Assembly: GCA_041659405.1 (NCBI GenBank)
Contig: JBAZYK010000004.1
Location: 96,852-128,851 of the forward strand
Reading direction: 5' to 3'
Source of the DNA: Candidatus Altimarinota bacterium
Lineage (GTDB): Bacteria > Patescibacteriota > Gracilibacteria > UBA1369
DNA length: 32,000 nt
Below, piece by piece: positions 2,238-29,910 of this stretch. Within the stretch, counting starts at the first letter, position 1, and each line of letters starts with the position of its first letter. A model generated the notes under the pieces. That model saw nothing but the letters and a program-made list of their open reading frames with translations. It was not told where the DNA came from and ran no database searches. A program made the position numbers and the translations under genes.

Positions 2238-2306
2238 AGATAAGCCTATCTTTGCGCAACCAACCGTGCAGGCATATAATTTGAGCGCTTCATTAAGCAA
2301 GTTTTT

Positions 2307-3215
2307 ATGGCTAATCAAACATCTTCACAGGCCCACTCCCTCCAGAAAATCGGCATTATCACCAAAAGTAATATTGGTGAGCGCAAAAGCGATCTAAAAA
2401 AAATTGTCGCGATGCTGAAGAAATTTAAAAAAGAGGTTTTGCTGGATGTAAATTCCGCGCCGGTTTTAGGTGTAAAAAATGGCCACAGAAAGACCGAACT
2501 GCTTCAGGTTTGTGATCTTGTTTTGACCCTTGGCGGCGATGGAACTTTGCTCAGAGCTGCCCGATGTACAGCCAATAAACCGACCTTAATCCTTGGTGTG
2601 AATTTTGGAAATCTGGGATTTTTGACTGAATCAATACCTGAAAAACTTGAGCAGGATCTTAAAAAATTATTTGAAGGTCATTATTATATTGATGAACGTT
2701 TTCTTTTGCGCATCAATCATTATCGCAACGGTCAAAGAATTAATACCTTTTTAGCTCTAAATGATGCGGTAATTAACCAGGGAGCTTTTGCCAGACTGAT
2801 TGAAATGCAGGTCGAAATTAACAAACAGCGCATGGTTACTTTTAAGGCCGATGGCTTGATCGTGAGCTCTCCGACCGGTTCAACGGGTCATGCCCTTTCT
2901 GCCGGAGGACCAATTGTTCATCCTTCTTTGCCCGCTTTTATTCTTACCCCAATCTGCCCCGCAACGCTTTCCGTACGCCCAATCGTCATTCCAAATGATC
3001 GCGAAATAAAAATAACTTTGACTACCCAAAGAAAAGAAAACCAAAATGTCGGTTTAACCTTGGACGGCCAAAAAACCATTCCGCTTCAATATGGAGACGA
3101 AATCAAAATCCGCCAATCCAAGCGCAAGTTTTTACTGATTCGCCTAAAAGGTGGCAGCAGCTATTACCGCATGCTCCGCAGCAAACTCCACTGGGGCGAG
3201 CATCATGGGGATTAA
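2307..3215 (+). CDS. nadK: NAD(+) kinase
   Basis: The GGDGTLL motif (LTLGGDGTLLRA), NFGNLGFL, and DGLIVSSPTGSTGHALSAGGPIVHP are the hallmark NAD kinase motifs. The length of 302 aa is typical. Confidence 0.9.
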   Translation: MANQTSSQAHSLQKIGIITKSNIGERKSDLKKIVAMLKKFKKEVLLDVNSAPVLGVKNGHRKTELLQVCDLVLTLGGDGTLLRAARCTANKPTLILGVNFGNLGFLTESIPEKLEQDLKKLFEGHYYIDERFLLRINHYRNGQRINTFLALNDAVINQGAFARLIEMQVEINKQRMVTFKADGLIVSSPTGSTGHALSAGGPIVHPSLPAFILTPICPATLSVRPIVIPNDREIKITLTTQRKENQNVGLTLDGQKTIPLQYGDEIKIRQSKRKFLLIRLKGGSSYYRMLRSKLHWGEHHGD

Positions 3216-13800: not shown

Positions 13801-14322
13801 TACATTAAAGGTTTGTCCAACTTTAAATTGATCTTTTGGATAGAACATTAAAGCATTCCCGGACCAGTCAAATCGCCCTTCAACCTGCGGATTAACGCGG
13901 AAAGCCTTTTCAACCGAACCATGGTCCATCAACTGCGTAAAGACAACTTTTATTGGCGCATTATAAGAAATTTTTCGCACATTTGCCCTTAAGTTGTAGC
14001 CCTGAACTTCCGGAGCCGGAATAAATGGATAACTAGCAAATCCAACAGTAATAACCAAAAGTATAGCCACAACAAATGCCCAGCCTTTATTAAGTGATCC
14101 AAAATTAAATTTAGGCCAAGTAAATCGCGCCACACTACCCTCACGCATCACCTCTTTATGCTTCATCATTAACTTCGTCCGCAAATTCTTCTGGAACTGC
14201 GCGCGTGGAATTTCCGACGCATTGCTGGAAATTGCGCTCACCAATTTCTGCAGATCCTCAGGCCGTTTTTTGGCCTCCAGCATCTTCATGAATTCTCTAA
14301 TTTTTTTGGTGAGAAAGAACAT
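7807..14322 (-). CDS. Giant (2171 aa) membrane-anchored alpha-2-macroglobulin family protein with thioester-type CxEQ motif
   Basis: LMTYPYGCAEQVASALLPN (CAEQ encoded at 9352-9363) is followed by a GNGGWGLWE thioester-domain-like segment. There are many beta-rich Ig/MG-like repeats. A single TM helix (WAFVVAILLVITVGFASYPF) follows ~80 cytoplasmic residues. Size and domain order fit bacterial A2M (YfhM/ECAM-like). Confidence 0.88.
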   Translation of the reverse strand: MFFLTKKIREFMKMLEAKKRPEDLQKLVSAISSNASEIPRAQFQKNLRTKLMMKHKEVMREGSVARFTWPKFNFGSLNKGWAFVVAILLVITVGFASYPFIPAPEVQGYNLRANVRKISYNAPIKVVFTQLMDHGSVEKAFRVNPQVEGRFDWSGNALMFYPKDQFKVGQTFNVFVDRAAKSIFQKSLRYDYEEVFEITGPPQVLLFSPAASSVDVPIDAQITMHFDRPMTQLTTLDQGVENAIAVKIDPPTNGKMKWLGTDSIRFIPDKLAYSTHYTLTIPKGTFSAEGGQTDQDFVATFDTLKPELINTVPLNLGKYNGPQLFFSDLSDFPASSSNIQLLFNQIMNADKASSKIHLWSYKGDKNRLKFFGCGGDCPQSTNISGSGKSAPQSTEDVLKQFNANDWAEVPFQVSYYTLNQFKTDSEYKEGDTQITLPEPEELKKTLMLSPAQPLGYDQYYLVKVDKDFGGVEGTLTLGEDKGILFKTVGEITVNSTAPKNGVKDYPLSGGISLTFSQPMDLDSIKEKFAIEPKSIDADTKLENQPDLTLSLSDTVLNVSYAIKPSTDYKITIQKGVKDQFGKTLNQDFVLTFKTAAISPTFEVMSPTDITVVDANKPTVFYVKSTNVDTMNLNFKKLSEEEFKKIYQRGYIDWRSNIPAGPFTSFSKTIAKQFNQTVTTKIDLGKETNMAMAPGYYYFDVSSPQVKNPYAGQDGALNLRIERHIFMVSYSGLTMKMSPTKLLIWATNFADGAPNAGMDISVIQNGSTDGKALYSGKTDQNGLVTFDLPASAGSENIYNRQYLIFGKKNNDITLTHTTWSEGVDPSSFNIDYNPYAPKYYAYVYMDRPIYRPGNTVYFKGILRVDKDAAFKLPDVKQAMVTIDDSMGNAVYSKTLDLNANGSFAGELQLGNQAATGDYFLNVAVGNNGVVTGKGQSNVIGSYQSFHVAEYRKPDYQINLNTDKKSYVNGDTLKLKVKASYFFGAPLPNAPIQWTVKSQDYFFFLNSDNNLSPFFSFSDEGYSCYFGCQGQTAVVSQGKAKLDANGEYTIELPLNIADKKMSQFYTVEVTAFDLNNQSVSDRVTVSVHEGEYYVGIMSINDVVQAGKEAKFDLVSVDENGKVVGGKSTEVTLYKRNWNTVKKKNVDSDYYFENSYDDVLIEKKTVTTDNQGKANVSFIPKEGGVFKVGTESKDSRGNKITSSTTVYVSSGSFVNWGQANNDRIELVADKQEYKIGDTAHVMVKSPYQNVYALVTYERGEILDKKVIKIKSNSDVIDVPITDKSIPNEFVSVVLIKGDNNQAGLAQPTGKDAIDERSVASFKMGYATLQVDTSSRKLLVSVQTNQQKYHPGDEVTINVKTTDVNGKPVKAEMSLSVVDKSVLSLVENFTADLLNDFYRKRSLGVMTSETLTKALSRINVQVESGLKGGGGGTLQKRGNFKDTAYWQAALNTNEQGVGTIKFKLPDNLTTWQILAIGATANTLVGSQKTDFIVSKDVLVRPILPRFLIVNDEITVGTIVHNYLTNAVDLDVSVEASGVTLNGSNKQRIHLGSGEEKKVEFKATVLDEAEAVITFKAIAVNDSNIGDILENKMPIHPYSFPETVATSTVIDNGDKHVETVWLPNNIDPKFGKLTIAVAPTLASSITKGIEYLMTYPYGCAEQVASALLPNVTIKQMLSLPALGKIAAKLVDQKTLQKNVESGLQALYKLQQGNGGWGLWETSEATPHLTSYVLFALNESKKAGYTVDDNVMNRGVNFLKSKIGSNSVKISQLTNSTLSSTKYDKYNLDSRAFALYVLAEMGKGDLALSNNLFDLRKNLNLSAQAYLVMDLQKLITQEKLGGAALQEVQKKIDTIKNEILARAKESPRGVHFEENTLDYQFFDTNNRTTALILQMLNRLDPANPLVPKMLRYMLLEKKNGHFASTQETAVSLMALIEYLKTSGELNVDYDGIVTVNGAEKLHKGFTENNIEAREEVTIPLKDLLQNNLDNEITAVRNGNGKMYFDMNLQYFLPTEQIKARDEGIEVHQQYFATDDKKEENPLTSIKVGENLKGKMTIIVPEDSYYVLVEDFLPAGLEGVDFSLKTSEQQLQDQNDGKGSMCLTWDCYNELWRFNHSEVLDDRMTYFADFLPKGVYEINYFVRATTPGTYHDLPAMASETYFPEVFGRSEGRMFMVTN

Positions 14323-17849: not shown

Positions 17850-18275
17850 TTACTTCCAAACCTGATACCACTTCCTTTTTGGCTGTTCCAAGAGTTTAAA
17901 TTGATTTTCCAAACTCAAAAAACGATCCTGAAACGCCTTCATAAAACGCATAAAACTTTCTTTGTCCTTCTTGTTACCTTCCAGCAAACCTTCAACGTGC
18001 GCCTGCAATTTTTGAAGATCCTGCAAAGTTGCAACCTCGGCGGAAACGGCCTTTGACTCTTCCTTGATTGAGCGTTGTTCACGATCAAAAATCGAACTCT
18101 GGCCAAGTTTATAAAACTTAACAAGACTTTCCTGGGTAATCAAATAATTAAAACCCTGTGGAGTCCTTTTTTTCTTTGCCTGAAGCTTTTTGCCTTTCAA
18201 AGCACGACGAATGGTTTGTAGCGATTTACCACTTATCTTAGCGGCTTCTTGAAGCGTTAGCAGAGTTTCAGGCAT
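17850..18275 (-). CDS. Helix-turn-helix DNA-binding protein (excisionase/MerR-like HTH) with coiled-coil tail
   Basis: The N-terminus LLTLQEAAKISGKSLQTIRRALKGKKL resembles the excisionase-family HTH. The rest is a charged coiled-coil-like sequence. A possible TTGATT-18-TATAAT promoter (minus) lies at 18316-18345. Confidence 0.55.
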   Translation of the reverse strand: MPETLLTLQEAAKISGKSLQTIRRALKGKKLQAKKKRTPQGFNYLITQESLVKFYKLGQSSIFDREQRSIKEESKAVSAEVATLQDLQKLQAHVEGLLEGNKKDKESFMRFMKAFQDRFLSLENQFKLLEQPKRKWYQVWK

Positions 18276-18409: not shown

Positions 18410-18485
18410 GACCTTGTCTCCAAATTGTCACCGTATGGTGGCGTTTCCATGATTTCCATGGAATAGGAGCGGGGTCGTTTTTTTA
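18410..18485 (+). ncRNA. Candidate small structured RNA (Y-shaped, three helices) ending in a U-run
   Basis: Closing helix: GACC/CUCC (18410-18421) pairs with GGAG/GGUC (18466-18476). Inner hairpins: CACC-GUAU-GGUG (18429-18440) and CCAUG-AUUUC-CAUGG (18447-18461). A T7 run follows (18478-18484). The region is non-coding in all frames. Confidence 0.25.
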
Positions 18486-18626: not shown

Positions 18627-18659
18627 TCTTTTGAAAACCGACTGGTGCAGGGCACGCAG
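18627..18659. repeat. Outer homology box, left copy (inverted partner at 24979-25010)
   Basis: CTTTTGAAAACCGACTGGTGCAGGGCACGCAG versus the reverse complement of the right copy TTTTTGAGAACCAACTGGTGCAGGCAGCGCAG. By-eye alignment gives roughly 85% identity with one 1-nt indel. Confidence 0.6.
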
Positions 18660-18738: not shown

Positions 18739-18868
18739 CGTTTTTGGGTAAAAAAGCCTTGCATCTTTAAAAAGATATTGGTAGGATAACCCTCCTTATC
18801 ATTAAGCGCCATTTATGTTAGAAATAAGAGACCAGATAAACTTAATTGACGATAGCCATATAACCAAA
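18739..18868. repeat. Core inverted repeat, left arm (promoter + leader + ATG + first ~18 codons of the AspRS-like gene)
   Basis: 18755-18854 aligns to the reverse complement of 24608-24714 with 3 mismatches plus one 7-nt tandem duplication (AAGCGCC) in the right arm. Weaker homology extends outward over a CGTTTTTG(G/T)GTAAAA(A/G)AGCC stretch. It also extends inward to codon 18. Confidence 0.92.
18759..18787 (+). promoter_or_regulatory. Putative promoter of the plus-strand island operon (inside the inverted repeat)
   Basis: TTGCAT (18759-18764), a 17-nt spacer, then TAGGAT (18782-18787), 27 nt upstream of the ATG at 18815. An identical element is mirrored at 24682-24710. Confidence 0.4.
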
Positions 18869-20158
18869 CCAGTCGAGATTGATGACTTAAGCAAGAGGTC
18901 AGGGGAGACCGTGCAAATGGAAGGTGCTGTTCACAAGATTAGAAGCTTGGGGAATGTAGCTTTTATCGTTATTCGAACTATAAGGGATAAATTACAGGTT
19001 GTTCTGGATGGTGAATCCATGCAATTACTTTCCGGTTTGAAAGAAGGCGATTTTGTAAAATTCAGTGGCGTTGTGGAAGAAAATCCTAAAGCATATAAAG
19101 GGCAGGAAGTTAGAGCAACAGCCATAGATAAGTTAAGTGGAGCAAAGGATGTATTAGAAGTTAATCTTGGGGCAAAAGAGCTTCCAATGAATCTTGAAAC
19201 AAAATTGGATCGTAGGATTTTAACATTAAGGCATTTGCGTGAAAGAGCGGTTTTCAAACTGCAGGAAGGAGTTGGTGTTGCTTTTCGAGAATATCTTTTG
19301 GATCAGAGATTTACCGAAATACATTCGCCCAAAATAGTTGCAGCAGGAGCTGAAGGAGGAGCCAATATATTTAAACTTGATTATTTTGGACGACCTGCTT
19401 TTCTTGCTCAAAGTCCTCAATTTTATAAACAATTTATGGTTCCTGTGTATGGTAGAGTTTTTGAAGTGGGGCCAGTTTTCCGCGCGGAGAAACATGCGAC
19501 TTCGCGTCATATTAACGAATACACATCATTAGATTTTGAAATGGGTTTTATTGATTCTTTTAGAGATGTTATGTCGATGGAAGTTGGTTTTTTGAAATAT
19601 CTTATAGGGGTTTTGGGGCAGAGGTATGGACATGAACTTGAATTGCTTGGCATAAAACTGCCGGATATTAGTAGTGTCCCAGCTATTAAATTCGCTGATG
19701 CTAAGGAACAAGTAGCAAAAAAATATAACAGAAAATACAGAGATCCTTATGATTTAGAACCAGAAGAAGAAAGATTGATCGGAGACATGGTTAAGCAAGA
19801 AACAGGAAGTGATTTCGTATTTCTAACCCATTACCCTAAGGCCAAACGTCCATTTTACACTATGTCGTCTACTGAAGATCCAAATTATACCGAAAGTTTT
19901 GATCTGCTTTTCAAAGGATTAGAAATTACCACTGGTGGTCAACGAATTCATGATTATGACACACAGGTAGAAGCCTTAAGAGCAAAAGGGTTAAATCCAG
20001 ATGACTTTAAGGATTATCTTGAATTACACAAAAATGGCACTCCTCCTCATGGTGGTTGTGGAATTGGACTTGAGAGGTTAACATTAAAACTTTTAGGAGG
20101 AACCAATGTTAGAGAAGCAACGCTCTTCCCAAGAGATTTGAATCGTCTTACTCCTTAA
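18815..20158 (+). CDS. aspS: Archaeal/eukaryal-type (class IIb) aspartyl-tRNA synthetase, catalytically intact, with an extra N-terminal ~20-aa tag
   Basis: OB-fold anticodon-binding start (VQMEGAVHKIRSLGNVAFIVIRTIRDKLQVV). Motif 1 is FTEIHSPKI and the Asp-specific motif is AQSPQFYKQ. Motif 2 is VFRAEKHATSRHINEYTSLDFEM and motif 3 is PPHGGCGIGLERLTLKLLGGTNVREATLFPRDLNRLTP. The 447-aa length fits the short archaeal-type AspRS. Whether it is the housekeeping copy or a paralog cannot be told from this window. Confidence 0.85.
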   Translation: MLEIRDQINLIDDSHITKPVEIDDLSKRSGETVQMEGAVHKIRSLGNVAFIVIRTIRDKLQVVLDGESMQLLSGLKEGDFVKFSGVVEENPKAYKGQEVRATAIDKLSGAKDVLEVNLGAKELPMNLETKLDRRILTLRHLRERAVFKLQEGVGVAFREYLLDQRFTEIHSPKIVAAGAEGGANIFKLDYFGRPAFLAQSPQFYKQFMVPVYGRVFEVGPVFRAEKHATSRHINEYTSLDFEMGFIDSFRDVMSMEVGFLKYLIGVLGQRYGHELELLGIKLPDISSVPAIKFADAKEQVAKKYNRKYRDPYDLEPEEERLIGDMVKQETGSDFVFLTHYPKAKRPFYTMSSTEDPNYTESFDLLFKGLEITTGGQRIHDYDTQVEALRAKGLNPDDFKDYLELHKNGTPPHGGCGIGLERLTLKLLGGTNVREATLFPRDLNRLTP

Positions 20159-20169
20159 AGTGTAAAATT

Positions 20170-20928
20170 ATGTATCGAGAAGGTATTGAAGTGAAAAGGG
20201 ATACAAATGCTGGCATACTCCTCGAATACCCTTCTTGTCTCGAAGTTGTTGAGAAACTCTTTCCTGATAGTTGTGAAAGAATTTATTATCCGAATGACGA
20301 AGATTCTGTTGTTCATGTGAATCGTGAAGGAATAGATGTTGCATTCATTGCAGGACATGGGGCAAGTATCGCAGCGTGCATGGCAGAAAGACTGCGCGTA
20401 TATGGGGCACAAGCATTAGTACGTATTGGAACGTGCGGTGCCCTTTCAAAAACAGTGCGCCTTTGGGAACCGATCATCACTACGGCATGTTTTAGCGACG
20501 AAGGTACTTCGAGACATTATCTTCCCGAAGGATTTCCTATTGTTTCAAATCCAGCATTAAATCTGGCTCTTCGTGAGCATTTTGAAAAAAGCGGGATAAC
20601 TCCGCAAGAAGGCATATCCATTACGACTGACGGAAGATGGCGGGAGGATCCAGGGCTTTTTAAAAAGTTACATGAACTTGGGGTAGTTTCGGTTGAAATG
20701 GAAACTGCAGCCATTCTTGCTGTAGCGCAATATCGAAAACTATTTGGCGCTGCGATTAATATCGCGACAGATTTGCCAGCAGATGTAGAGAGTGAACATG
20801 ATTTTAAGGGGATTCCTGATCGTGAAAACTATGACGAAAATTTTGATAAGAGCTTACGGATAATTATCCCGATAGTTATCGATACGCTTGTTGCCTTTCA
20901 GAGAGTTGTTTTAGCTTCTCATCTATGA
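20170..20928 (+). CDS. Nucleoside phosphorylase/nucleosidase, PNP_UDP_1 (DeoD/Udp/MtnN) superfamily
   Basis: GHGASIAACMAERLRVYGAQALVRIGTCGAL (the GxGxxS...E.L...G...IR.GTCG pattern) and VSVEMETAAILAVA (the EME-x-AA motif). It starts 11 nt after the AspRS stop. Confidence 0.75.
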   Translation: MYREGIEVKRDTNAGILLEYPSCLEVVEKLFPDSCERIYYPNDEDSVVHVNREGIDVAFIAGHGASIAACMAERLRVYGAQALVRIGTCGALSKTVRLWEPIITTACFSDEGTSRHYLPEGFPIVSNPALNLALREHFEKSGITPQEGISITTDGRWREDPGLFKKLHELGVVSVEMETAAILAVAQYRKLFGAAINIATDLPADVESEHDFKGIPDRENYDENFDKSLRIIIPIVIDTLVAFQRVVLASHL

Positions 20929-21560
20929 AAAGAGAATGGAATAACATTTCTGATGATACTGAGACGATGGTATTTACAACCCCTTTGCCAGATGCGCGAA
21001 TTTTATCGTTAGCGCCGCCTGAGTCTTCAAGTGTGCTTGATATAGGTTGTGGTTATGGTCGTGTCTTAAAACATATGTATGAAATGGGATATCGAGATCT
21101 TACTGGGATTGACGTTTCCGATGGACTTATATTAAGAGCTAAACAATTGTGTCCTGATGCCGTCTATCGCATTCAAGATATTGAGAGTATCCAACTTGAA
21201 CAAAAATATGATCTGATTTTAATCATGGGAGTTATTGAATATATTTTGAGTGATGAAAATCAGAAAGAATTTTTTGGTAAAGTGAGTAGAGCTCTTCGCC
21301 CTAATGGACACGTATTATTAGAAACATTTGTTCTTGACCCTACAAATATATGTCAGTACATGGCTGGACTATTGAAAACAGGCCATTTGGGCAGATTTAC
21401 GAATAACAGTAAGGGATTTGAGTGTCATCATCAATCTTATGCAGTTGTAGATAGACTTGTGTCTGAATTTTTTGAGGTAATAATCCGAACTCGCCAAAAA
21501 TTTTTAACCTGGACTGGCTATGAATGTAACGGGTATTCACTTATTCTTCGGGCTAAATAA
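20925..21560 (+). CDS. Class I SAM-dependent methyltransferase
   Basis: Motif I VLDIGCGYGRVL, an acidic loop TGIDVS, and a post-I/II pattern (YDLILIMGVIEYI, LRPNGHVLLE). It has a 4-nt ATGA overlap with the upstream gene. Confidence 0.8.
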   Translation: MKREWNNISDDTETMVFTTPLPDARILSLAPPESSSVLDIGCGYGRVLKHMYEMGYRDLTGIDVSDGLILRAKQLCPDAVYRIQDIESIQLEQKYDLILIMGVIEYILSDENQKEFFGKVSRALRPNGHVLLETFVLDPTNICQYMAGLLKTGHLGRFTNNSKGFECHHQSYAVVDRLVSEFFEVIIRTRQKFLTWTGYECNGYSLILRAK

Positions 21561-21583
21561 TTTTTGTGATATACTTTCAATAT

Positions 21584-21766
21584 ATGATATCTTCGCAACA
21601 CAACTCTTCTCTACGCCAGCTAGAACGTCTAATGCAAGAAAAGGATGAGGAACTGACCCGTCTAGACAATCTTAAAAAAAATGAATTTAGAGATATGCGG
21701 CGATTATCTGAAATAGATATGACGATACAAGAAATAAGGCGTAAAATGATGTTTCACCATGAATAA
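21584..21766 (+). CDS. Small (60 aa from the ATG) charged coiled-coil protein, hypothetical
   Basis: The tracked ORF 21566..21766 starts with GTG; the first ATG is at 21584. Its stop overlaps the HIT gene start by 8 nt (ATGAATAA), which suggests translational coupling. No recognisable motif. Confidence 0.35.
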   Translation: MISSQHNSSLRQLERLMQEKDEELTRLDNLKKNEFRDMRRLSEIDMTIQEIRRKMMFHHE

Positions 21767-22169
21767 ATGTGTTTTTTGCATTATTGCGCGACGCGAAAAA
21801 TCTGCCAACATTGTGTGGGAAGATGATTATGTGATGGCTTTTTTGGATATTGATCCTATTTCAGATGGTCACACCCTTGTGATTCCAAAAAATCATATTC
21901 GCGATGTAAGTGGGCTAGACGAAAAAACAGGCTCTCACGTGATGAGTGTTGCAAAAATTTTAGCATCCGTTATAGAAAAAACTTTTGGATTCGATGGTAT
22001 CGAAATCAGAGCTGTAAGTGGACATTTCCAAGATGTTCCTCATTTTCATTTGCACGTTTTTGGCAGAAATAAGATAAATGACATAAAGATTATATATCCT
22101 AAAGGAATCAATAACTCTCCCGAATATTTGGCTAAAAACGCTAAAAAAATCAAGGATGAATTGAAGTAA
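21759..22169 (+). CDS. HIT (histidine triad) family nucleotide hydrolase/phosphoramidase, Hint branch
   Basis: CVFCIIARRE N-terminus, DGHTLVIPKNH, and the histidine triad VPHFHLHVFGR. 136 aa. Confidence 0.9.
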   Translation: MNKCVFCIIARREKSANIVWEDDYVMAFLDIDPISDGHTLVIPKNHIRDVSGLDEKTGSHVMSVAKILASVIEKTFGFDGIEIRAVSGHFQDVPHFHLHVFGRNKINDIKIIYPKGINNSPEYLAKNAKKIKDELK

Positions 22170-22176
22170 AATTTTA

Positions 22177-23175
22177 CTATACGATCTTTGGTAATTTCTT
22201 TCCATTCCTATAAGAGTCAACTAAATCTGTATAATCTGATTTTTTATTCCCCTGTTTACTTGGACTAAAAGCAGTTAGATATCTGTTTCCAGAATCTGGA
22301 CATAAAACAACTAAATTTTTTCCAGTAAGCCCGTTATCGTCTACAAACTGTTTTGCCGCTGCCACTGCCAATCCGCTAGAGCCTCCAATGTAAATTCCAG
22401 TTTCAGTTATTAGATTTTCTATTTCCATCAATGCTAGTGCATCCCGTACTTCCACTACATTTGCGAGAATATCCAAATTTAAGTTTTTAGGGATGAAATC
22501 TTCACCAACACCTTCTATTGCAGTTACCACGTTTCTACTCTCATTTATTCCATGAAATTTTGTGTAGTAAACTCCTGAATCTGGAGTTACTCCTACAACT
22601 TTCGTAGGAAGATCTTCATCTTTAAAATACTGTGCAACGCCGGAGGCCGTCCCTCCAGTTCCCATAGGACTAAATACATAATCTGCATTTGGAACATTGT
22701 TATGTATTTCAGGGCCGGTCGTTTTTTTATGAGCTTCTGGATTTAAAGGATTATTAAATTGATCTATGAAAATCGAATCACGAGTATTTTGTGCAATGAT
22801 TTCAGCGAAACCTCTAAAACCCAATGGGGATTCTGAATGTACGGATTCATCCACCATAATCAATTCTATTCCGTATCTTTGTAAAAGCTTAACCTTATCA
22901 GGACTAGTTTTGGATGTTATTATTAGCACTAATCTAAATCCATAAATTTTTGAAGCCATAGCCAGTCCAATTGCCAAATTACCACTGCTATATTCAACTA
23001 CTGTTCGTCCGCGTAAACCTATTTTTTTATCTAATGAATTACATACATGAAAAGCAACACGATCTTTTATAGACAAACCTGGATTCGCTCCTTCAAGTTT
23101 TAAATGTAGGCGATTGTCTTTATAAGGTATTTCAACGATTGGAGTATTACCAACCAAATTTTCCGCATTACGCAT
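22177..23175 (-). CDS. PLP-dependent beta-replacement enzyme of the cysteine synthase / CBS (fold type II) family
   Basis: PLP-lysine motif NPGLSIKDRVAFH, phosphate-loop SPMGTGGTASGVAQYF, and the overall CysK/CysM layout. 332 aa. It starts 2 nt after the upstream PP-loop gene stop. Confidence 0.85.
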   Translation of the reverse strand: MRNAENLVGNTPIVEIPYKDNRLHLKLEGANPGLSIKDRVAFHVCNSLDKKIGLRGRTVVEYSSGNLAIGLAMASKIYGFRLVLIITSKTSPDKVKLLQRYGIELIMVDESVHSESPLGFRGFAEIIAQNTRDSIFIDQFNNPLNPEAHKKTTGPEIHNNVPNADYVFSPMGTGGTASGVAQYFKDEDLPTKVVGVTPDSGVYYTKFHGINESRNVVTAIEGVGEDFIPKNLNLDILANVVEVRDALALMEIENLITETGIYIGGSSGLAVAAAKQFVDDNGLTGKNLVVLCPDSGNRYLTAFSPSKQGNKKSDYTDLVDSYRNGKKLPKIV

Positions 23176-23177
23176 AG

Positions 23178-24647
23178 CTATTTTTTGTTAAAAAAACGTC
23201 TAAAAAGTAAAGAATCTGGGACTTCTAAGCGCGGTCCATCACAAACACGTTGATATATCCAGCCTAAACCATCAACAAATTGCGGAATTTCTCCATGAGA
23301 AGCTATCGTCGGAACCCTGCGTCCAAAATATTGTTCATACGGCATTACTCTATCGTCATCATTTAAATGATCTGCTGGCAAAGCAGAATAATCAACTCCC
23401 AATTTTGCACTCATTTTTTCCCTGTCACCAACAAAATTTAATGACTGATCAGTATTTGAGCTATCAACTGTTTGATATCTACCCGAGTATCTCTGGTCAA
23501 GATATTCTGCAACTTTTGGATTGAAAGGCAGTTCTTTGGAGAAAAGTTGACTTTCTGCAATAACGTCTTTCCCATATTTAGCTACAAGCTTGTCGTATAA
23601 TGGATTTCCAAATAAATAACCTGGTGTATCAATTACTTGAGGCATTTCTCTAAGATACTCGTATCCTTTTAAATGCATTGCAGTACTTGCGAGTTTTATA
23701 CGTTGACATTTGTCGCAATATCCACAATCAGAGGCATTTTCGCTATTCCAGCATGATACGCGAGATTCAAGTGCTGCAAGTCCGAATTTACGTCGTATGT
23801 ATTCAAATACTGAATATGTGCTTAAGGTGGCAAGAGGGTAAGTAAAACTTACCGATGGTCCCAATAATGATTCCAAATACTTTTGATGCAATTCCATTGC
23901 CATCGGACTCTCATAAGGAGCTCTTCTTCGATTTGAATTAAATCCCAAAACATCAAATGAATGACCAATTGCAATGTGTTGAGGAACTCTATCTTCGACG
24001 TTCCATAAAGATGCAAAGTATGTCATTGAAATATCAAATGGCTCATATCTACCATCAAGTCCATTCCTACAAACATCGTGCTCATAAGTAGAATAATCAG
24101 CATTATCAGTAGGGTTCTTCTTATCATAATCAATTTTGTAGTCGCGAAGATCAAACCCGCATGCTTTTAATATTTCAGCTGATACAAAAGAGTCTCTTCC
24201 TCCGCTATTTCCAATTACAATTTGATTTGGAACAGCAGTGACCGGGTCTGGATGTAATTCCGTCAATGTCCTCGCGGTCACAAGTGGTGGACGAGCATCA
24301 TCCAGCGAACCAATGACCCCCGAACTGAGACGGCCGATAAATTCAAAAGATCTAGGATCTAAATCAAAATCTAAATTGATTATCATGGATTGACGAAATT
24401 TGCCAATCATCGCGGCAATAAGTGCAGATTTTATTATTTCAAGACCAACCTCTGTTGGCTTCTCTTTTGCAGTAAATCCAATTACCGATAAAATTTTACT
24501 TTGTATATCACTAGCTCTAAGTACAGCGGAATTTTGTGCGTGTTCAAATTCGCAATTAATTATTGCATCTGAACTGACTTCACTACCTTGTTTATTGGTT
24601 ATACGATTATCGTCGATTAAGTTTACCTGGTCTCTTATTTCTAACAT
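23178..24647 (-). CDS. PP-loop ATP pyrophosphatase, QueC/ExsB-like, with C-terminal Cys cluster and large extra N- and C-terminal regions
   Basis: SGGxDS PP-loop (IVIGNSGGRDSFVSAEIL). SCWNSENASDCGYCDKCQRIKL resembles the QueC zinc-binding CxxCxxC tail. At 489 aa it is about twice the size of canonical QueC. The N-terminal MLEIRDQVNLIDDNRIT is shared with the AspRS-like protein. Confidence 0.7.
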   Translation of the reverse strand: MLEIRDQVNLIDDNRITNKQGSEVSSDAIINCEFEHAQNSAVLRASDIQSKILSVIGFTAKEKPTEVGLEIIKSALIAAMIGKFRQSMIINLDFDLDPRSFEFIGRLSSGVIGSLDDARPPLVTARTLTELHPDPVTAVPNQIVIGNSGGRDSFVSAEILKACGFDLRDYKIDYDKKNPTDNADYSTYEHDVCRNGLDGRYEPFDISMTYFASLWNVEDRVPQHIAIGHSFDVLGFNSNRRRAPYESPMAMELHQKYLESLLGPSVSFTYPLATLSTYSVFEYIRRKFGLAALESRVSCWNSENASDCGYCDKCQRIKLASTAMHLKGYEYLREMPQVIDTPGYLFGNPLYDKLVAKYGKDVIAESQLFSKELPFNPKVAEYLDQRYSGRYQTVDSSNTDQSLNFVGDREKMSAKLGVDYSALPADHLNDDDRVMPYEQYFGRRVPTIASHGEIPQFVDGLGWIYQRVCDGPRLEVPDSLLFRRFFNKK

Positions 24648-24732
24648 AAATGGCGCTTGGCGCTTAATGATGAGGAGGGTTATCCTACCAATATCTTTTT
24701 AAAGATGCAAGGCTCTTTTACACAAAAACGGG
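24594..24732. repeat. Core inverted repeat, right arm (promoter + leader + ATG + first ~18 codons of the PP-loop gene)
   Basis: Its reverse complement aligns with 18739-18868 (see the left arm). It contains a 7-nt tandem duplication AAGCGCC AAGCGCC in the leader that is absent on the left. Confidence 0.92.
24682..24710 (-). promoter_or_regulatory. Putative promoter of the minus-strand island operon (mirror of 18759-18787)
   Basis: On the minus strand: TTGCAT (24710-24705), a 17-nt spacer, then TAGGAT (24687-24682). The sequence is identical to the left-arm element. Confidence 0.4.
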
Positions 24733-24978: not shown

Positions 24979-25010
24979 CTGCGCTGCCTGCACCAGTTGG
25001 TTCTCAAAAA
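24979..25010. repeat. Outer homology box, right copy
   Basis: Inverted partner of 18627-18659. It abuts the U-run of the tRNA-Lys terminator. Confidence 0.6.
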
Positions 25011-25034
25011 AAACCTCTGTAGGTTAGCCTACAG
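25006..25034 (-). terminator. Rho-independent terminator downstream of tRNA-Lys
   Basis: On the minus strand: CTGTAGG-CTAA-CCTACAG (a 7-bp stem, 25017-25034), followed by AGG and then a U8 run (plus-strand A-run at 25006-25013). Confidence 0.6.
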
Positions 25035-25114: not shown

Positions 25115-25190
25115 TGGTGGGCTAGATCGGAATCGAACCGATGACCATCTCCTTAAAAGGGAGCTGCTCTACCGACTGAGCTACTAGCCC
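25115..25190 (-). tRNA. tRNA-Lys (anticodon UUU), CCA encoded
   Basis: The 76-nt reverse complement GGGCTAGTAGCTCAGTCGGTAGAGCAGCTCCCTTTTAAGGAGATGGTCATCGGTTCGATTCCGATCTAGCCCACCA folds as a cloverleaf. It has a 7-bp acceptor stem, a 4-bp D stem, the anticodon loop CTTTTAA, and a TTCGATT T-loop. There is one G-A mismatch at 27:43. Confidence 0.95.
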
Positions 25191-26175: not shown

Positions 26176-27354
26176 TTATCCTTTAAATTTTCCAAAAAAT
26201 CCATCTTTTAATCCTTTAATGTTAACTCCACCCTCTTGTGCCAGTTGTAAATAAAGTTCTCTTTCTTTTCGTGTGAGTTTTGCCGGAATATCCACAGTTA
26301 CCTTTACAAACTGGTCACCTTTTTCATCGGATTTTAATTTTTTGATCCCGTATCCTTTCATTTTGAAAATTTTCCCACTTTGTGTTCCTGCCGGAATCTT
26401 TAACTCGAATTTTCCCTCTAGGCCCGCTACTCCAACCTCATCGCCCAAAACCGACTGCAATAAATGGATATGAATTTCACAATGAATATCGTAGCCATCA
26501 CGAACAAAAACTTTACTTGGTGCCACAAGCAAATGAACGTATAAATCGCCCGCAGGTCCCCCAAAAGTCCCCGCTTCACCTTTCCCCGTAACTCTAATGG
26601 TTGAATCATTATCCACGCCCGCAGGAATTTTCACGCGCATTTTTTCGCTTTTACGAACGCGCGTCGTGCCATGGCAAACCGTACATTTTTTTTCTTGAGT
26701 GCTGCCCTCTCCATAACATTCGGAACAAACTTGAGTGGTCGCCATTTGCCCAAATAAAGTTTGGCGTACGCTTCTTACTTCTCCGCTACCTCTGCAGGTT
26801 GGGCAAATAATTGTCTTGCTGCCAGGCTCCGCGCCTGTTCCACGGCAATGATCGCAGCTGAAAGTTTTTGTGATTAGTAATTCTTTTTCCGTGCCAAAAG
26901 CCGCCTCTTCAAAGGTTATCTGCAATTGAAATTCAATATCTTCACCCTGTCTTGGTCCACGTTTTTTTCCGCGTGATCCACCGTGCCCGCCGCCCTGTGA
27001 TCCAAAAAAAGTTTCAAAAATATCCGCAAAACCACCACCTTCGGAAAATTGCGAAAAATCAAATCCGGATCCATTAAAACCTTGTCCAAAGCCCGCACCG
27101 CCGCCTTGTGCGCCGCCATATCCGCCACCACCAAATGCATCTGCCGATCCAAACTGATCATAATTGGAACGTTTTTGCTTATCGGAAAGCACTTCATAGG
27201 CTTCATTGATCTCCTTGAATTTGCTCTCGGCTTCTTTATTGTCTTTGTTTCGATCAGGATGATACTGCAAAGCCATCTTTCTATAGGATTTTTTAATTTC
27301 CTGATCAGTAGCGCCTTTTTGGATACCTAATATATTGTAATAGTCTTTGGCCAT
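26176..27354 (-). CDS. dnaJ: Molecular chaperone DnaJ (type I Hsp40)
   Basis: J-domain ([34 protein letters not shown]), a G/F-rich region, and four CxxCxGxG zinc-finger repeats ([32 protein letters not shown]). The start is set at MAKDYY (ATG 27354-27352). The tracked ORF's 15-codon extension overlaps tRNA-Glu. Confidence 0.95.
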
Positions 27355-27363
27355 AATTTTTTT

Positions 27364-27438
27364 TGGTAGTCCTAACGGGAGTCGAACCCGTGTTTCCACC
27401 GTGAGAGGGTAGCGTCCTAACCACTAGACGATAGGACC
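27364..27438 (-). tRNA. tRNA-Glu (anticodon CUC), CCA encoded
   Basis: The 75-nt reverse complement is GGTCCTATCGTCTAGTGGTTAGGACGCTACCCTCTCACGGTGGAAACACGGGTTCGACTCCCGTTAGGACTACCA. It has a Glu-type short D stem, the anticodon loop CTCTCAC, and a T-arm ACGGG-TTCGACT-CCCGT. There is a G1-U72 wobble pair. Confidence 0.9.
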
Positions 27439-27667: not shown

Positions 27668-28081
27668 TTAAGCATAAGATTGAGATTTAATAATCTTATT
27701 GTATTCTGTCTCCATTTTAATATCAAATGTATAAAGTTCGTCAACCTTAAAAAGCAAAGCTGAGGTAATGATCAATAAATCAAGTGCTCTTAATTTAGCA
27801 TGTCTTGCGCATTCCAATACGTGTTCATGCCAAAATTTATAATCATAATCCAAGAGCATAATATTGTCCGTATTATTGAAGATCATTTTCACTTCCTTTT
27901 CAAATGAGGGTTGATTTAGTTTAATGATATTATTCATCACTTCCGCGTAAATTATCATCGGGACCAAAATAATTACATTCCTCTTCATTAGTTTTTTAAA
28001 AATTTGATCAGCCTGTTCTTTGTGCATATCTCTAACGAATAACGATATCCATACCGAGCTGTCCAGCATCACTTTTTTCAT
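27668..28081 (-). CDS. PIN-domain ribonuclease (VapC-like toxin), no adjacent antitoxin ORF
   Basis: MKKVMLDSSVWISLF provides Asp1. YAEV provides the Glu. LRALDLLI and YTFD provide the further acidic residues. 137 aa, which matches the size and motif spacing of a PIN domain. Confidence 0.8.
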   Translation of the reverse strand: MKKVMLDSSVWISLFVRDMHKEQADQIFKKLMKRNVIILVPMIIYAEVMNNIIKLNQPSFEKEVKMIFNNTDNIMLLDYDYKFWHEHVLECARHAKLRALDLLIITSALLFKVDELYTFDIKMETEYNKIIKSQSYA

Positions 28082-28119
28082 GGGGGATTGGTTACTATCA
28101 CCACCAGCTTACCCCCTCT

Positions 28120-28162
28120 ACATTAAAATTTTCTAAACGGATTATGAAATCTGTCTAAAATC
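28120..28162. repeat. 43-bp direct repeat, copy 1 (upstream of the PIN gene)
   Basis: ACATTAAAATTTTCTAAACGGATTATGAAATCTGTCTAAAATC is identical at 41 of 43 positions to 29977-30019. Confidence 0.92.
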
Positions 28163-28243
28163 ATTGCGCCCACCTGTGCGCGCGCACAGAGTTCCATTAT
28201 CGTGCGCCATTGCGCTGTTATCGCGCCATTTAGTTCGCATAAC

Positions 28244-28277
28244 AAAAAACTTCGGCACCGTAGACGTCTACAGCGGC
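28244..28277 (-). terminator. Possible rho-independent terminator of the AbiE operon
   Basis: On the minus strand: GCCGCUGUAGAC/GUCUACGGUGCC, an imperfect palindromic stem centred on GTAGACGTCTAC. It is followed by GAAG and a U6 run (plus-strand A-run at 28244-28249). Confidence 0.4.
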
Positions 28278-28345
28278 TTTCTACCGCGGTGGTGGGCTTT
28301 CCACCTGTAATTATGCGCACTTTTTCTGAAACTTTGCCGTGCCGC

Positions 28346-29098
28346 TTAATCAATACGCATAAATGGAAGTGACCTTACCATGTCTTCAATTTTCTTGGGC
28401 TCCACCTTGCGTGAATAAAATATCCTGTCAATTTCCATTTCTTTTTGTTCCTCCAGGAATTTCCAATTATTAATAATATTGGCAAGAGTAATGGGTTTTC
28501 TTATTTCCTTCCGCTTAATGAATTTTATAATTTCAGCAAAATCCGGCTGGTATTTTTCAAAAAGCAAATATAAATCATAATAATCACGGTATCGTGCCCG
28601 TTCACTCATGGCTCTGATTTTTTCTGCGCATATTTCCCGCTCATCCATGACTTTTATGTTCAGATCGATTCCCCAAACATTATTGTATTTCATGATTTTA
28701 GGCGGCAAAAGTACATTTTGCAGAAAATCAATTTCAACTTTTAAAGAATTTGGCTGAATTAATGGGCCAATGTACTGCAGTTTTTCAATTTTTACCGTTG
28801 CGCCTGAAAGATAATCTTTTTTTATTTTTAAATATTTTGTATTAGTAAAAATATTACGAATATCTTCCAGCCTGATTGTTTTTTGATTAGCTGAAAAATC
28901 CAAATCTTCAGAAAATCTGTGTTGTTCAAGATAGCAGTGATTGAGCGCGGTACCACCTTTGAAAATTAATTTTTGGCCAATGGAAGACTCGGAAATAATT
29001 TGCAAAACAAGAGCAAGAAAATAATCTTTTTCGGCTATATGCAAAGGATATTGCAATGTTTTTCTGTTGATAACTTCCAGCTGCTGCCTTGTAATCAT
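28346..29098 (-). CDS. AbiEii/AbiGii-family nucleotidyltransferase toxin (DUF1814-type, type IV TA / abortive infection)
   Basis: LIFKGGTALNHCYLEQHRFSEDLDFS is the signature GGTAL...R.S.DlDf nucleotidyltransferase motif of this family. 250 aa. It has a 4-nt overlap with the upstream AbiEi-like gene. Confidence 0.85.
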   Translation of the reverse strand: MITRQQLEVINRKTLQYPLHIAEKDYFLALVLQIISESSIGQKLIFKGGTALNHCYLEQHRFSEDLDFSANQKTIRLEDIRNIFTNTKYLKIKKDYLSGATVKIEKLQYIGPLIQPNSLKVEIDFLQNVLLPPKIMKYNNVWGIDLNIKVMDEREICAEKIRAMSERARYRDYYDLYLLFEKYQPDFAEIIKFIKRKEIRKPITLANIINNWKFLEEQKEMEIDRIFYSRKVEPKKIEDMVRSLPFMRID

Positions 29099-29910
29099 GT
29101 AAGATATTTATCAAAGTATTTGTCGTAGTATAGGCGCCATTTTGAACTGAATCTATCGCTATCCTTAAACATCCAATGTGTGCTTTTTTTAGCACTGATT
29201 CTTTTATGAAGACCTGACGAATCAATGCCGATTAAATCCAAAATGAAACCAAAAATTTTCATTGTTGCGATGGAAGAATTGTCCAAATATTTATTCAGTC
29301 TGGCAAAATTTAAGCTTTTATTATGTTCACGAATTTTTTCAATTACCAAATCAATGGAATATTTATTTCTATGAAAATTCACAATATCTATCAGTGCTTT
29401 TTCTGCTGTAGCAATGCGCGTTTTACCTCCATCAATATCAAACTCCTGCCAGCCAAAATAATTTTTTTTTTGAGTCTTGATGAATTGATATTCCATATTG
29501 TTAAGTTTTACTGTTTTATATGCTTTCATTGATACTGATGTGGTCTTATCTGTAAGCTGATCAAACATTCCGTGATGTTGCATAGCCGACCAAAAGGAAA
29601 CATATGATTCAGGGACAAGAAGATTTGCTACCAGGTATGGAGATATAGATAGAAACCCTCTATTTCCAAAATCGGAAATGACATATAATCCTTTTTTAAT
29701 GCGCACAAGCCAGCCATTTTTCCTTAGTTTTACAATAGTATTTTTAGTTTGACCGTGATCCCAGAGACCGGTAGCCTTGTCAAAAATCTGCTCCGAACTT
29801 ACAACTTGCCCATAATTAACAATTAAATTTTCAAGTAACAGGCTTTCTTTGCTATTTAAAATGGTTTTATTCATATACACATAGTCATTAATATTTATGA
29901 CTTTATGCAT
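29095..29910 (-). CDS. AbiEi-family antitoxin / transcriptional regulator (type IV TA)
   Basis: It sits immediately upstream of, and is translationally coupled to, the AbiEii-like gene. It has a winged-helix-like N-terminus (ESLLLENLIVNYGQVVSSEQIFD...WLVRIKKGLYVI) and a typical size of 271 aa. The call rests largely on operon context. Confidence 0.7.
   Translation of the reverse strand: MHKVININDYVYMNKTILNSKESLLLENLIVNYGQVVSSEQIFDKATGLWDHGQTKNTIVKLRKNGWLVRIKKGLYVISDFGNRGFLSISPYLVANLLVPESYVSFWSAMQHHGMFDQLTDKTTSVSMKAYKTVKLNNMEYQFIKTQKKNYFGWQEFDIDGGKTRIATAEKALIDIVNFHRNKYSIDLVIEKIREHNKSLNFARLNKYLDNSSIATMKIFGFILDLIGIDSSGLHKRISAKKSTHWMFKDSDRFSSKWRLYYDKYFDKYLT

Follow-up and report, generated by a model that had tools for sequence, protein, structure and literature searches.

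The stretch of DNA analysed here, referred to as the window, comprises 32,000 nucleotides of a Candidatus Altimarinota bacterium (contig JBAZYK010000004.1, positions 96,852 to 128,851 of the forward strand) and contains a compact gene island made of two convergent operons (Table 1). One operon encodes an aspartyl-tRNA synthetase (AspRS, gene aspS), a PNP/UDP-family protein, a methyltransferase, a 66-residue open reading frame (ORF) and a HIT protein; the opposing operon encodes a QueC-like PP-loop ATPase, designated PPL, and a pyridoxal phosphate (PLP) enzyme of the Pfam family PALP. A preliminary description, based on the letters of the window and its list of ORFs, had recognized seven tightly packed ORFs in this region, and all seven were confirmed, coordinates and packing alike. 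Family and structure matches (Pfam, NCBIfam-type models) also bore out the families it had assigned to the enzymes it named. The AspRS and PNP-like genes are separated by 11 nt, the PNP-like and methyltransferase genes overlap by 4 nt, a gap of 5 nt precedes the 66-residue ORF, and the latter overlaps the HIT gene by 8 nt; in the second operon, 2 nt lie between PPL and PALP, and no gap or overlap within either operon exceeds 11 nt. The HIT and PALP genes converge, with 7 nt separating their stop codons. Translation follows genetic code 11, under which the long ORFs are unbroken and the PNP-like gene stops at a TGA after 252 codons, compared to 252 and 248 residues for its homologues in two related loci (L009 and L008, respectively). 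Code 25, known from Gracilibacteria, was ruled out by this agreement in length. The bacterium itself is of the Peregrinibacteria/Peribacteria type within the candidate phyla radiation and carries the NCBI label 'Candidatus Gracilibacteria'.

Table 1. Features of the island, numbered from the first letter of the window.
Feature	Coordinates	Strand	Content or basis
Outer 31-nt block	18629..18659, inverted copy 24979-25009		84% match, repeat pair I3
Left repeat arm	18739..18867	+	T-run of upstream hairpin, aspS promoter-like element, 5' untranslated region, ATG 18815, first 17 aspS codons
aspS, archaeal-type AspRS2-like AspRS, 447 aa	18815..20158	+	OB-fold anticodon-binding domain and class II catalytic core
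PNP/UDP-family (DeoD- or AMP-nucleosidase-like) gene, 252 aa	20170..20928	+	PNP_UDP_1, 84 bits
Class I S-adenosylmethionine-dependent methyltransferase, 211 aa	20925..21560	+	Family models
66-aa ORF, GTG start, filling the gap between methyltransferase and HIT genes	21566..21766	+	Unverified as a gene
HIT (Hint-type) nucleotide hydrolase/phosphoramidase, 136 aa	21759..22169	+	Pfam HIT, 81 bits; canonical HFHLHVF triad; N-terminal CxxC
PALP, CysK/CBS/SbnA-like fold-type II PLP beta-replacement enzyme, 332 aa	22177..23175	-	Pfam PALP, 207 bits
PPL, three-domain PP-loop ATPase, 489 aa	23178..24647	-	Sequence motifs, AlphaFold model, Foldseek
Right repeat arm	24595..24730	-	Copy of aspS promoter-like element, 5' untranslated region, ATG and 17 codons on the PPL gene

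The least familiar protein of the island is PPL. Its disordered N-terminus (residues 1-25), which is grafted as described below, is followed by an alpha/beta domain (about 29-110), a QueC-like core (about 135-325) with an SGGRDS PP-loop and a four-cysteine site, and a conserved C-terminal domain marked by the motifs LPYExYF and GPxLxVPD. The PP-loop motif and the cysteines C299, C308, C311, and C314 are invariant across 16 PPL homologues. G146, G150, D152, S153, and the four cysteines remain invariant even when remote relatives are aligned, a step at which the first serine and the arginine of the PP-loop cease to be so. The match to Pfam QueC (PF06508) falls below the cutoff (19.9 bits against 22) and spans residues 265-316 only, and no NCBIfam model matches. 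The QueC-like nature proposed in the preliminary description is nevertheless borne out at the level of the predicted structure: in an AlphaFold model (16 homologues, pLDDT 82.7), Foldseek places the core with QueC (3BL5) at a probability of 0.99. Ribosomal protein uS11 is no more than a weak match of the N-terminal alpha/beta domain (TM 0.39-0.53 on target), and both this domain and the entire protein are acidic (pI about 5-6). The genes queD, queE, folE, and tgt are absent from the window and from every related locus alike.

PALP carries the PLP-binding lysine in the motif SIKDR, together with an SSGNL loop and the motifs GTGGT and GGSSG. Its scores against the CysK, cystathionine beta-synthase (CBS), and SbnA models all lie at about 205-220 bits and below every equivalog cutoff (cysK, 208.8 with a cutoff of 351; cysKM, 219.9 with 344; SbnA, 204.2 with 350), as does the score against cysM (164.9 with 394). 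No OCD/SbnB gene occurs in the window cluster. The PALP copies of the various clusters are 54-87% identical to one another, and the short gap between PALP and PPL in the window is replaced by a 4-nt overlap in locus L001. In one lineage (P0164) the two proteins are fused into a single PALP-PPL chain, and PPL is fused to a methyltransferase in another (P0147/L018). These fusions and the strict pairing of the two genes argue that PALP and PPL work together. Such a fusion of PALP with PPL is encoded by an intron-containing gene of the tardigrade Hypsibius exemplaris (L017, 10001-13929; OWA54050.1, annotated as cystathionine beta-synthase), which reflects either horizontal transfer into an animal or contamination. 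A placement of PPL and PALP in known primary-metabolism families had been named as a possible outcome in the preliminary description. Neither protein could be placed squarely in such a family: all equivalog cutoffs are missed, and PPL is rare, since a search of 5.8 billion proteins yielded 19 clusters and one of 1.84 billion yielded 42 representatives.

The AspRS exceeds the cutoff of the aspartate--tRNA(Asn) ligase model NF003483 (532.4 bits; cutoff 353) and that of TIGR00458 (383.9 bits; cutoff 368.4). Pfam assigns it the domains tRNA_anti-codon and tRNA-synt_2 within its 447 residues, a short architecture lacking the bacterial GAD insertion. Its closest solved relative is the non-discriminating (ND) AspRS2 of Thermus thermophilus (1N9W/3KFU, 363 bits), and in an alignment with 1N9W the motifs that contact aspartate and ATP are intact (QSPQFYKQ, FRAE, GGQRIH, PPHGG, and GLERL). 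The model score and the alignment confirm the catalytically intact archaeal-type enzyme recognized earlier, and its canonical motifs reveal no remodelling of the active site. Judged by these sequence features, the window AspRS is probably non-discriminating. A histidine shared with the ND Thermus enzyme occupies the position that we take to be that of Trp26 in the discriminating AspRS of T. kodakarensis; in the remaining cluster copies the residue at this site is Q, L, or D. AspRS copies linked to the cluster in L001, L003, L016, and L023 score 440-484 bits with the ND-type AspRS model, above its cutoff, and all cluster copies retain the full anticodon-binding domain. The L001 enzyme is only 38-44% identical to other cluster AspRSs, and its companions PPL and PALP are not outliers. 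The cluster-linked AspRSs are thus polyphyletic, which indicates that the adjacency is to an AspRS in general and not to one AspRS lineage. Among the other enzymes, the HIT protein has the sequences HFHLHVF and DGHTLVIPK, which are conserved in all nine cluster HITs, and the methyltransferase finds its closest solved structures among N-methyltransferases (ToxA and an N,N-dimethyltransferase).

The conservation of this gene set was assessed in eight distinct contexts from Peribacteria/Peregrinibacteria (the window, L001, L003, L005, L011, L013, L014, and L015). The trio of HIT, PPL, and PALP genes is present in all eight, and an ND-type AspRS gene adjoins it in seven, the exception being L013, in four different arrangements. 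The operons are convergent in the window and divergent in L001, L003, and L005; in L011 an AspRS-HIT unit diverges from a PPL-PALP unit, and in L014 and L015/L021 the four genes form a single co-directional operon. The genes that flank these eight contexts differ completely. No conserved tRNA gene lies near any cluster locus, and the tRNA-Lys(UUU) gene of the window is an ordinary neighbour. Upstream of the L015 operon, at a distance of about 3-5 kb, an S51-family peptidase is encoded (1233-3053), a member of the family shown to cleave processed microcin C, with a protein of about 390 residues related to AlaRS (tRNA-synt_2c) nearby.

Profile searching recovered full-length PPL relatives at about 19-25% identity, and several of them are accompanied by the same partners. 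An unassigned metagenome contig (L023) encodes, all in one direction, an AlrN-like protein, PALP, PPL, a methyltransferase, the serine O-acetyltransferase CysE, HIT, and an ND-type AspRS. In Elizabethkingia anophelis (L016), a methyltransferase, an AspRS, a LuxR-type (GerE) regulator, and a GNAT protein precede a run of AlrN-like, PALP, PPL, CysE, and major facilitator superfamily (MFS) transporter genes. The PPL of this species, MDV3769049.1 of assembly GCA_032913785.1, is a singleton protein cluster, and its cluster AspRS is presumably an extra copy, an assumption based on general knowledge of the species and on the singleton status of the cluster protein. In L022 the order AlrN-like, PALP, PPL is followed by an adenine phosphoribosyltransferase (APRT)-like gene. 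The AlrN-like protein, 236-342 residues long and directly upstream of PALP in L016, L018, L022, and L023 (27-47% mutual identity), bears a faint N-terminal alanine-racemase signature (fold-type III PLP) and is absent from the Peribacteria clusters. On the mobilizable plasmid p1 of Exiguobacterium acetylicum (L026, NZ_CP075898.1, 83737-91441), PALP and a short PPL of 355 residues that lacks the C-terminal domain are encoded with a non-ribosomal peptide synthetase (NRPS) module (A-PCP-C), an MFS transporter, and a helix-turn-helix (HTH)-TPR regulator. A further remote relative was found on an IMG/VR contig, at the contig end beside host-like genes.

Clustering of this kind goes far beyond what chance would produce, since the same partners accompany remote homologues across taxa that are not related. 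The reappearance of AspRS (twice) and HIT (once) at this distance argues that the linkage is functional and not just inherited synteny. The preliminary description had treated the seven genes as one set. In the neighbourhood survey, AspRS, HIT, PPL, and PALP recur, as does a methyltransferase in remote lineages (it is also found in L003), whereas the PNP-like gene and the 66-residue ORF are not part of the core. The suggested role in small-molecule metabolism is supported by the company the genes keep elsewhere: CysE and MFS exporters (each twice), the NRPS module, the phosphoribosyltransferase, the GNAT protein, and regulators including one of the LuxR type are typical of such a pathway. The existence of relatives in a cultured E. 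anophelis strain, in Metasolibacillus meyeri, whose genome encodes WP_326123130.1, and on the E. acetylicum plasmid makes the function directly testable.

An inverted repeat, about 130 nt long, brackets the island in the window and ties the two operons together. A repeat search returned it as pair I1 (73 nt, 96% complementary) and pair I2 (64 nt, 92% complementary), and alignment of the arms showed 92-96% identity with a single 7-nt indel. The promoter-like element of the left arm consists of TTGCAT (18759-18764), a 17-nt spacer, and TAGGAT (18782-18787); its counterpart in the right arm lies at 24710-24705 and 24687-24682, and the 5' untranslated region that follows it contains a 7-nt tandem duplication (AAGCGCC). 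As a consequence of the shared codons, AspRS starts with MLEIRDQINLIDDSHIT and PPL with MLEIRDQVNLIDDNRIT. The aspS gene of L007 (88% identical) has the same promoter block and N-terminus, which identifies the left arm as the native copy. The repeat-encoded residues are missing from PPL homologues. Taken together, the control region and start of aspS have been grafted onto the PPL-PALP operon; the repeated sequence is native to aspS and foreign to PPL. It follows that the two convergent operons should be expressed together, and the arrangement provides a clear example of promoter capture, in which an aminoacyl-tRNA synthetase (aaRS) promoter and start codons placed on a second operon enforce co-expression. 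An outer 31-nt block with an inverted copy beyond the other arm may be left over from a longer duplication, or it may serve as a shared site.

Two other explanations of the repeat, an assembly artefact and transposon ends, were rejected: the arms differ at several positions in addition to the indel, the promoter and start native to aspS lie within them, and no transposase is present. A palindrome in the shared promoter (ATCTTT-AA-AAAGAT) was considered as an operator and dismissed, given that it is not kept in L007. Rfam searches at gathering and E<=1 thresholds found no leader RNA, whether a T-box or of another class, ahead of aspS, and a GC-rich element in that position folds no better than shuffled sequences (z = -1.4).

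The two non-core genes belong to the immediate relatives of the window. PNP-like and methyltransferase genes follow aspS only in the close relatives L007 to L009, which carry other cassettes and not PPL, and the PNP-like gene is absent from every other PPL locus examined. In L007, the closest relative, it is broken into two overlapping fragments (11356-12092), apparently by a frameshift, which suggests that it is dispensable. By its distribution, it is a lineage-specific accessory outside the conserved core. For the 66-residue ORF there was neither a family match nor a tblastn match in any related locus, and it is therefore listed as unverified. The other cassettes beside the aspS-PNP-methyltransferase operon in L009 (12719-16637) and L008 (11364-13205) comprise a pair of SbnA-like and SbnB-like proteins, a metallo-beta-lactamase-fold hydrolase, and a SerRS-like protein of about 330 residues, truncated and of the methanogen type, which resembles amino acid:carrier-protein ligases. 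In L009 the SbnB-like (271 bits, cutoff 327) and SbnA-like (253 bits, cutoff 350) proteins both fall below their equivalog cutoffs, and the PALP is only 31% identical to that of the window.

Based on these data, we tentatively favour, at a probability of roughly 40%, a model in which the island is a small-molecule cassette that makes an aspartate-related product derived from a beta-substituted alanine, with AspRS and HIT serving in self-protection or AspRS acting as an aspartate donor. PALP working with PPL would form the core of this accessory cassette. PALP would convert O-acetylserine or O-phosphoserine to a beta-substituted alanine, the O-acetylserine being supplied by the in-cluster CysE in the remote versions, and PPL, if it works as QueC and other PP-loop enzymes do, would use ATP to adenylate a carboxylate and yield an amide, nitrile, or other acyl derivative, which the methyltransferase could then tailor. 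The product is proposed to resemble aspartate or aspartyl-adenylate, and such mimicry would explain why AspRS and HIT travel with the pathway: the producer could be protected by an insensitive or over-expressed AspRS target and by HIT hydrolysis of toxic or mis-made adenylates. In a less likely variant, the pathway would draw its activated aspartate from AspRS. An obligatory co-expression of pathway and protection would be in keeping with the promoter that both operons of the window share.

Several observations weigh against this model. PALP and PPL occur without a nearby AspRS in L013, L018, and plasmid L026. The window itself lacks an exporter, a CysE, and a regulator (MFS transporter and regulator are combined only in L016 and L026), and a reduced genome of the candidate phyla radiation (CPR) is an unusual home for secondary metabolism. 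The order PBP1A-aspS is common to the window and L008, and the identity of the AspRS to its relatives declines roughly like that of the housekeeping enzyme PPDK, a calibration that showed Peregrinibacteria to be well sampled. In Peregrinibacteria the cluster aspS may accordingly be the only, housekeeping copy, and the logic of a second, resistant copy is for that reason unproven for the window. The complete anticodon-binding domain of all AspRS copies also fits a tRNA-dependent role. Finally, the cluster HITs are not of the MccH type. MccH proteins, which have been shown to hydrolyse processed microcin C, form a clade with the motif ExxxxxHxHxKxx, in which the third histidine is replaced by lysine and the N-terminal histidine is lost (PMC7157772). 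All cluster HITs keep the third histidine (HxHxH) and the N-terminal one, and an MccH-type immunity HIT was accordingly rejected. Of the interpretation in the preliminary description, the recurrent gene set and the small-molecule role are supported, and nothing in the data points to an aspartate-linked nucleotide as the product. A broader nucleobase or nucleoside theme finds a faint echo in the PNP-like gene, the APRT-like gene of L022, and the resemblance of the methyltransferase to ToxA.

Other readings of the same genes assign AspRS a catalytic part. It might be biosynthetic and have no role in immunity, giving Asp-AMP or Asp-tRNA so that aspartate is joined to the amino acid made by PALP and PPL, while HIT recycles or edits stray adenylates. 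The activating enzymes found beside PALP-type enzymes do appear interchangeable (L026 has the NRPS module, L008 and L009 have the SerRS-like ligases, and AspRS takes this place elsewhere), and Hint enzymes are known to act on aminoacyl-adenylates generated by synthetases, as Hint does with LysRS. We nevertheless consider this unlikely, given that neither an aminoacyl-tRNA-dependent transferase (Fem, CDPS, or PacB type) nor a carrier protein is present, that the AspRS active site is not remodelled, and that housekeeping Asp-tRNA is normally enough. Alternatively, PPL could adenylate the beta-carboxylate of tRNA-bound aspartate, on Asp-tRNA(Asn) or Asp-tRNA(Asp) made by the ND-type AspRS, and then amidate or otherwise modify it, with PALP as the subunit that generates ammonia or another nucleophile, resulting in GatCAB-independent Asn-tRNA or a novel aminoacyl-tRNA. 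Glutaminase domains serve as the ammonia source of other PP-loop amidotransferases, and the translational coupling of PALP and PPL and their fusion in one lineage are reminiscent of such synthetase and ammonia-donor pairs. QueC-family chemistry is suited to carboxylate amidation, the cluster AspRSs exceed the aspartate--tRNA(Asn) ligase cutoff and keep their anticodon-binding domain, with the transamidosome AspRS2 as closest structure, and the weak similarity of the PPL N-terminal domain is to uS11, an RNA-binding fold. Peribacteria, moreover, make few amino acids (PMC4736985). The rarity and accessory nature of the PPL family, however, and partners without any role in transamidation (CysE, MFS exporters, the NRPS module, the methyltransferase, and the phosphoribosyltransferase) render this reading rather improbable. 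Its fit is reduced further by the acidity of PPL and its N-domain, unusual for tRNA-binding enzymes, the weakness of the uS11 match, the lack of a consistently linked tRNA gene, the CysK (beta-replacement) rather than dehydratase type of PALP, and the three loci without a nearby AspRS. The plainer alternative offered in the preliminary description, an ND-AspRS with a new amidotransferase, has become less probable. That PALP and PPL constitute a new two-component enzyme of PLP and PP-loop parts, acting on tRNA-bound aspartate made by AspRS and mobile among CPR bacteria, Bacteroidota, and other bacteria, appears decidedly improbable.

The linkage could also be fortuitous or historical, with a housekeeping aspS lying beside a variable region in Peregrinibacteria and no functional tie. 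The different cassettes at the aspS locus of L007, L008, and L009 are what such a history would leave, the PBP1A-aspS synteny with L008 agrees with it, and the tRNA-Lys gene and the excisionase-like HTH gene around the island suggest an insertion hotspot. It is very unlikely all the same: the adjacency persists through four rearrangements within Peribacteria, AspRS again lies beside distant PPL relatives of 23-27% identity in a Bacteroidota genome and an unassigned metagenome contig, and the aspS promoter has been captured by the PPL operon of the window. The least probable of the readings considered is a system for phage defence or conflict, with PPL taking the role that QatC, Cap9, or DpdC has elsewhere and HIT acting alongside it as a nuclease or hydrolase. 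QueC-like proteins do occur in defence, Cap9 is among the PP-loop matches, toxin-antitoxin genes of the AbiE and PIN kinds are found at a distance of about 3-5 kb, and one remote PPL relative comes from an IMG/VR contig. PADLOC, however, reported no defence system but isolated weak domain matches (QueC, 16.9 bits; ThsC-type HIT, 40.8; and mad1/mad2), no TGT, ATPase, or nuclease partners are present, the recurrent partners are metabolic (PALP, CysE, methyltransferase, NRPS, and MFS), and the IMG/VR match is the one beside host-like genes. The small-molecule cassette remains the model preferred here.

The wider surroundings of the island contain further elements. Just beyond the right repeat arm, an intrinsic-terminator-like hairpin (25017-25034, minus strand) follows a tRNA-Lys(UUU) gene (25115-25190, minus strand), and on the other side of the island lies an excisionase-like HTH_17 gene (17850-18275, minus strand), with no integrase seen; the position between the two may represent an insertion hotspot. 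Between the HTH gene and aspS lies a 540-nt spacer with a full-length match to the Rfam motif DUF3800-IX RNA (18410-18480, plus strand; 62.6 bits, gathering score 36.8) that ends in a stem and U-run; a DUF3800 protein was not noticed in its vicinity. A few kilobases from the island, the minus strand carries a PIN-domain gene together with AbiEi/AbiEii, a type IV toxin-antitoxin pair (27668-29910). The mechanically called DnaJ ORF in the region 26176-27438 (minus strand) begins with a GTG (27399) that overlaps tRNA-Glu(CUC) (27364-27438), and the true start is probably the downstream ATG. An ORF of 2171 residues occupies 7807-14322 (minus strand). Peribacteria typically encode giant, often cysteine-rich surface proteins (PMC4736985).

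More generally, PPL represents an unexplored branch of the PP-loop enzymes, one that passes no Pfam or NCBIfam model, has no solved structure, and is bound to an obligatory PLP-enzyme partner. If the product is a mimic of aspartate or aspartyl-adenylate, the cassette would constitute the first non-ribosomal, MccB-independent route to an AspRS-directed antimetabolite and a rare bioactive-compound pathway in CPR bacteria. If the tRNA-dependent reading is true instead, it would represent a new route of aminoacyl-tRNA synthesis.

Literature searches returned no description of this gene combination, and the cassette does not belong to the microcin C systems, queuosine biosynthesis, cysteine synthase, SbnAB, or GatCAB. 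It shares parts with each of them. QueC, the 7-cyano-7-deazaguanine synthase, uses ATP and ammonia to convert a carboxylate to an amide. With QueC and the QueC-like proteins ToyM, DpdC, QatC, and Cap9, PPL has in common the SGGxDS PP-loop, the C...CxxCxxC metal site, and the core fold of 3BL5; in contrast to the single domain of about 220 residues in QueC, it is twice as large, has conserved extra N- and C-terminal domains and a sub-threshold Pfam score, and is always found with a PLP enzyme. PALP has the fold-type II PLP motifs of CysK, which functions with CysE, of SbnA in L-2,3-diaminopropionate (L-Dap) synthesis, of DcsD in D-cycloserine synthesis, and of cysteate synthase and AMA synthase, and the remote clusters encode a serine O-acetyltransferase. 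It differs in falling below the equivalog cutoffs and, in the window, in lacking SbnB, and we know of no CysK-family system among these with a PP-loop ATPase as obligatory partner. The AspRS is of the same type as that of the ND-AspRS/GatCAB transamidosome of Thermus, its closest solved match. Here, however, amidation would fall to a QueC-like PP-loop protein, and the module is an uncommon, accessory one. The cluster has no homologue of GatA, GatB, or GatC, and neither amidase nor GatB domains turned up among the scanned genes of the window or in the related loci. The pyl cassette (pylT-pylS-pylBCD) is likewise mobile and combines a synthetase with the biosynthetic enzymes for a non-standard amino acid, one step of which forms an amide at the expense of ATP; a pyl-like cassette with its own tRNA was rejected, as no tRNA accompanies any cluster locus and the AspRS active-site motifs are canonical.

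Closer parallels lie in systems that target a synthetase. Aspartamide-adenylates that target AspRS, and processed microcin C, are countered by protective HIT enzymes and S51 peptidases (PMC7157772, PMC9239234). The cassette resembles microcin C systems in that the target concerned is AspRS and a HIT hydrolase gene belongs to the set, and an S51 peptidase lies about 4.4 kb upstream in L015. Unlike them, the window has no MccB/ThiF-like enzyme, precursor peptide, or MccC-type exporter; no ThiF-like domain occurs in the window genes scanned or among the neighbours of related loci, and no systematic search for precursor peptides was made. Literature searches found no natural cluster with a resistant AspRS. 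For other synthetases such clusters are familiar, since those that produce inhibitors commonly carry a resistant copy of the target, as for mupirocin (IleRS), albomycin (SerRS), agrocin 84 (LeuRS), and borrelidin (ThrRS). To our knowledge, the CysK-like and QueC-like enzymes of the cassette match no known pathway to an aaRS inhibitor. The cassette nevertheless shares with these clusters an intact, divergent-type synthetase set among biosynthetic-looking enzymes and, in some of its versions, an exporter and a regulator, and by analogy it would be most like an aaRS-linked antimetabolite cluster.

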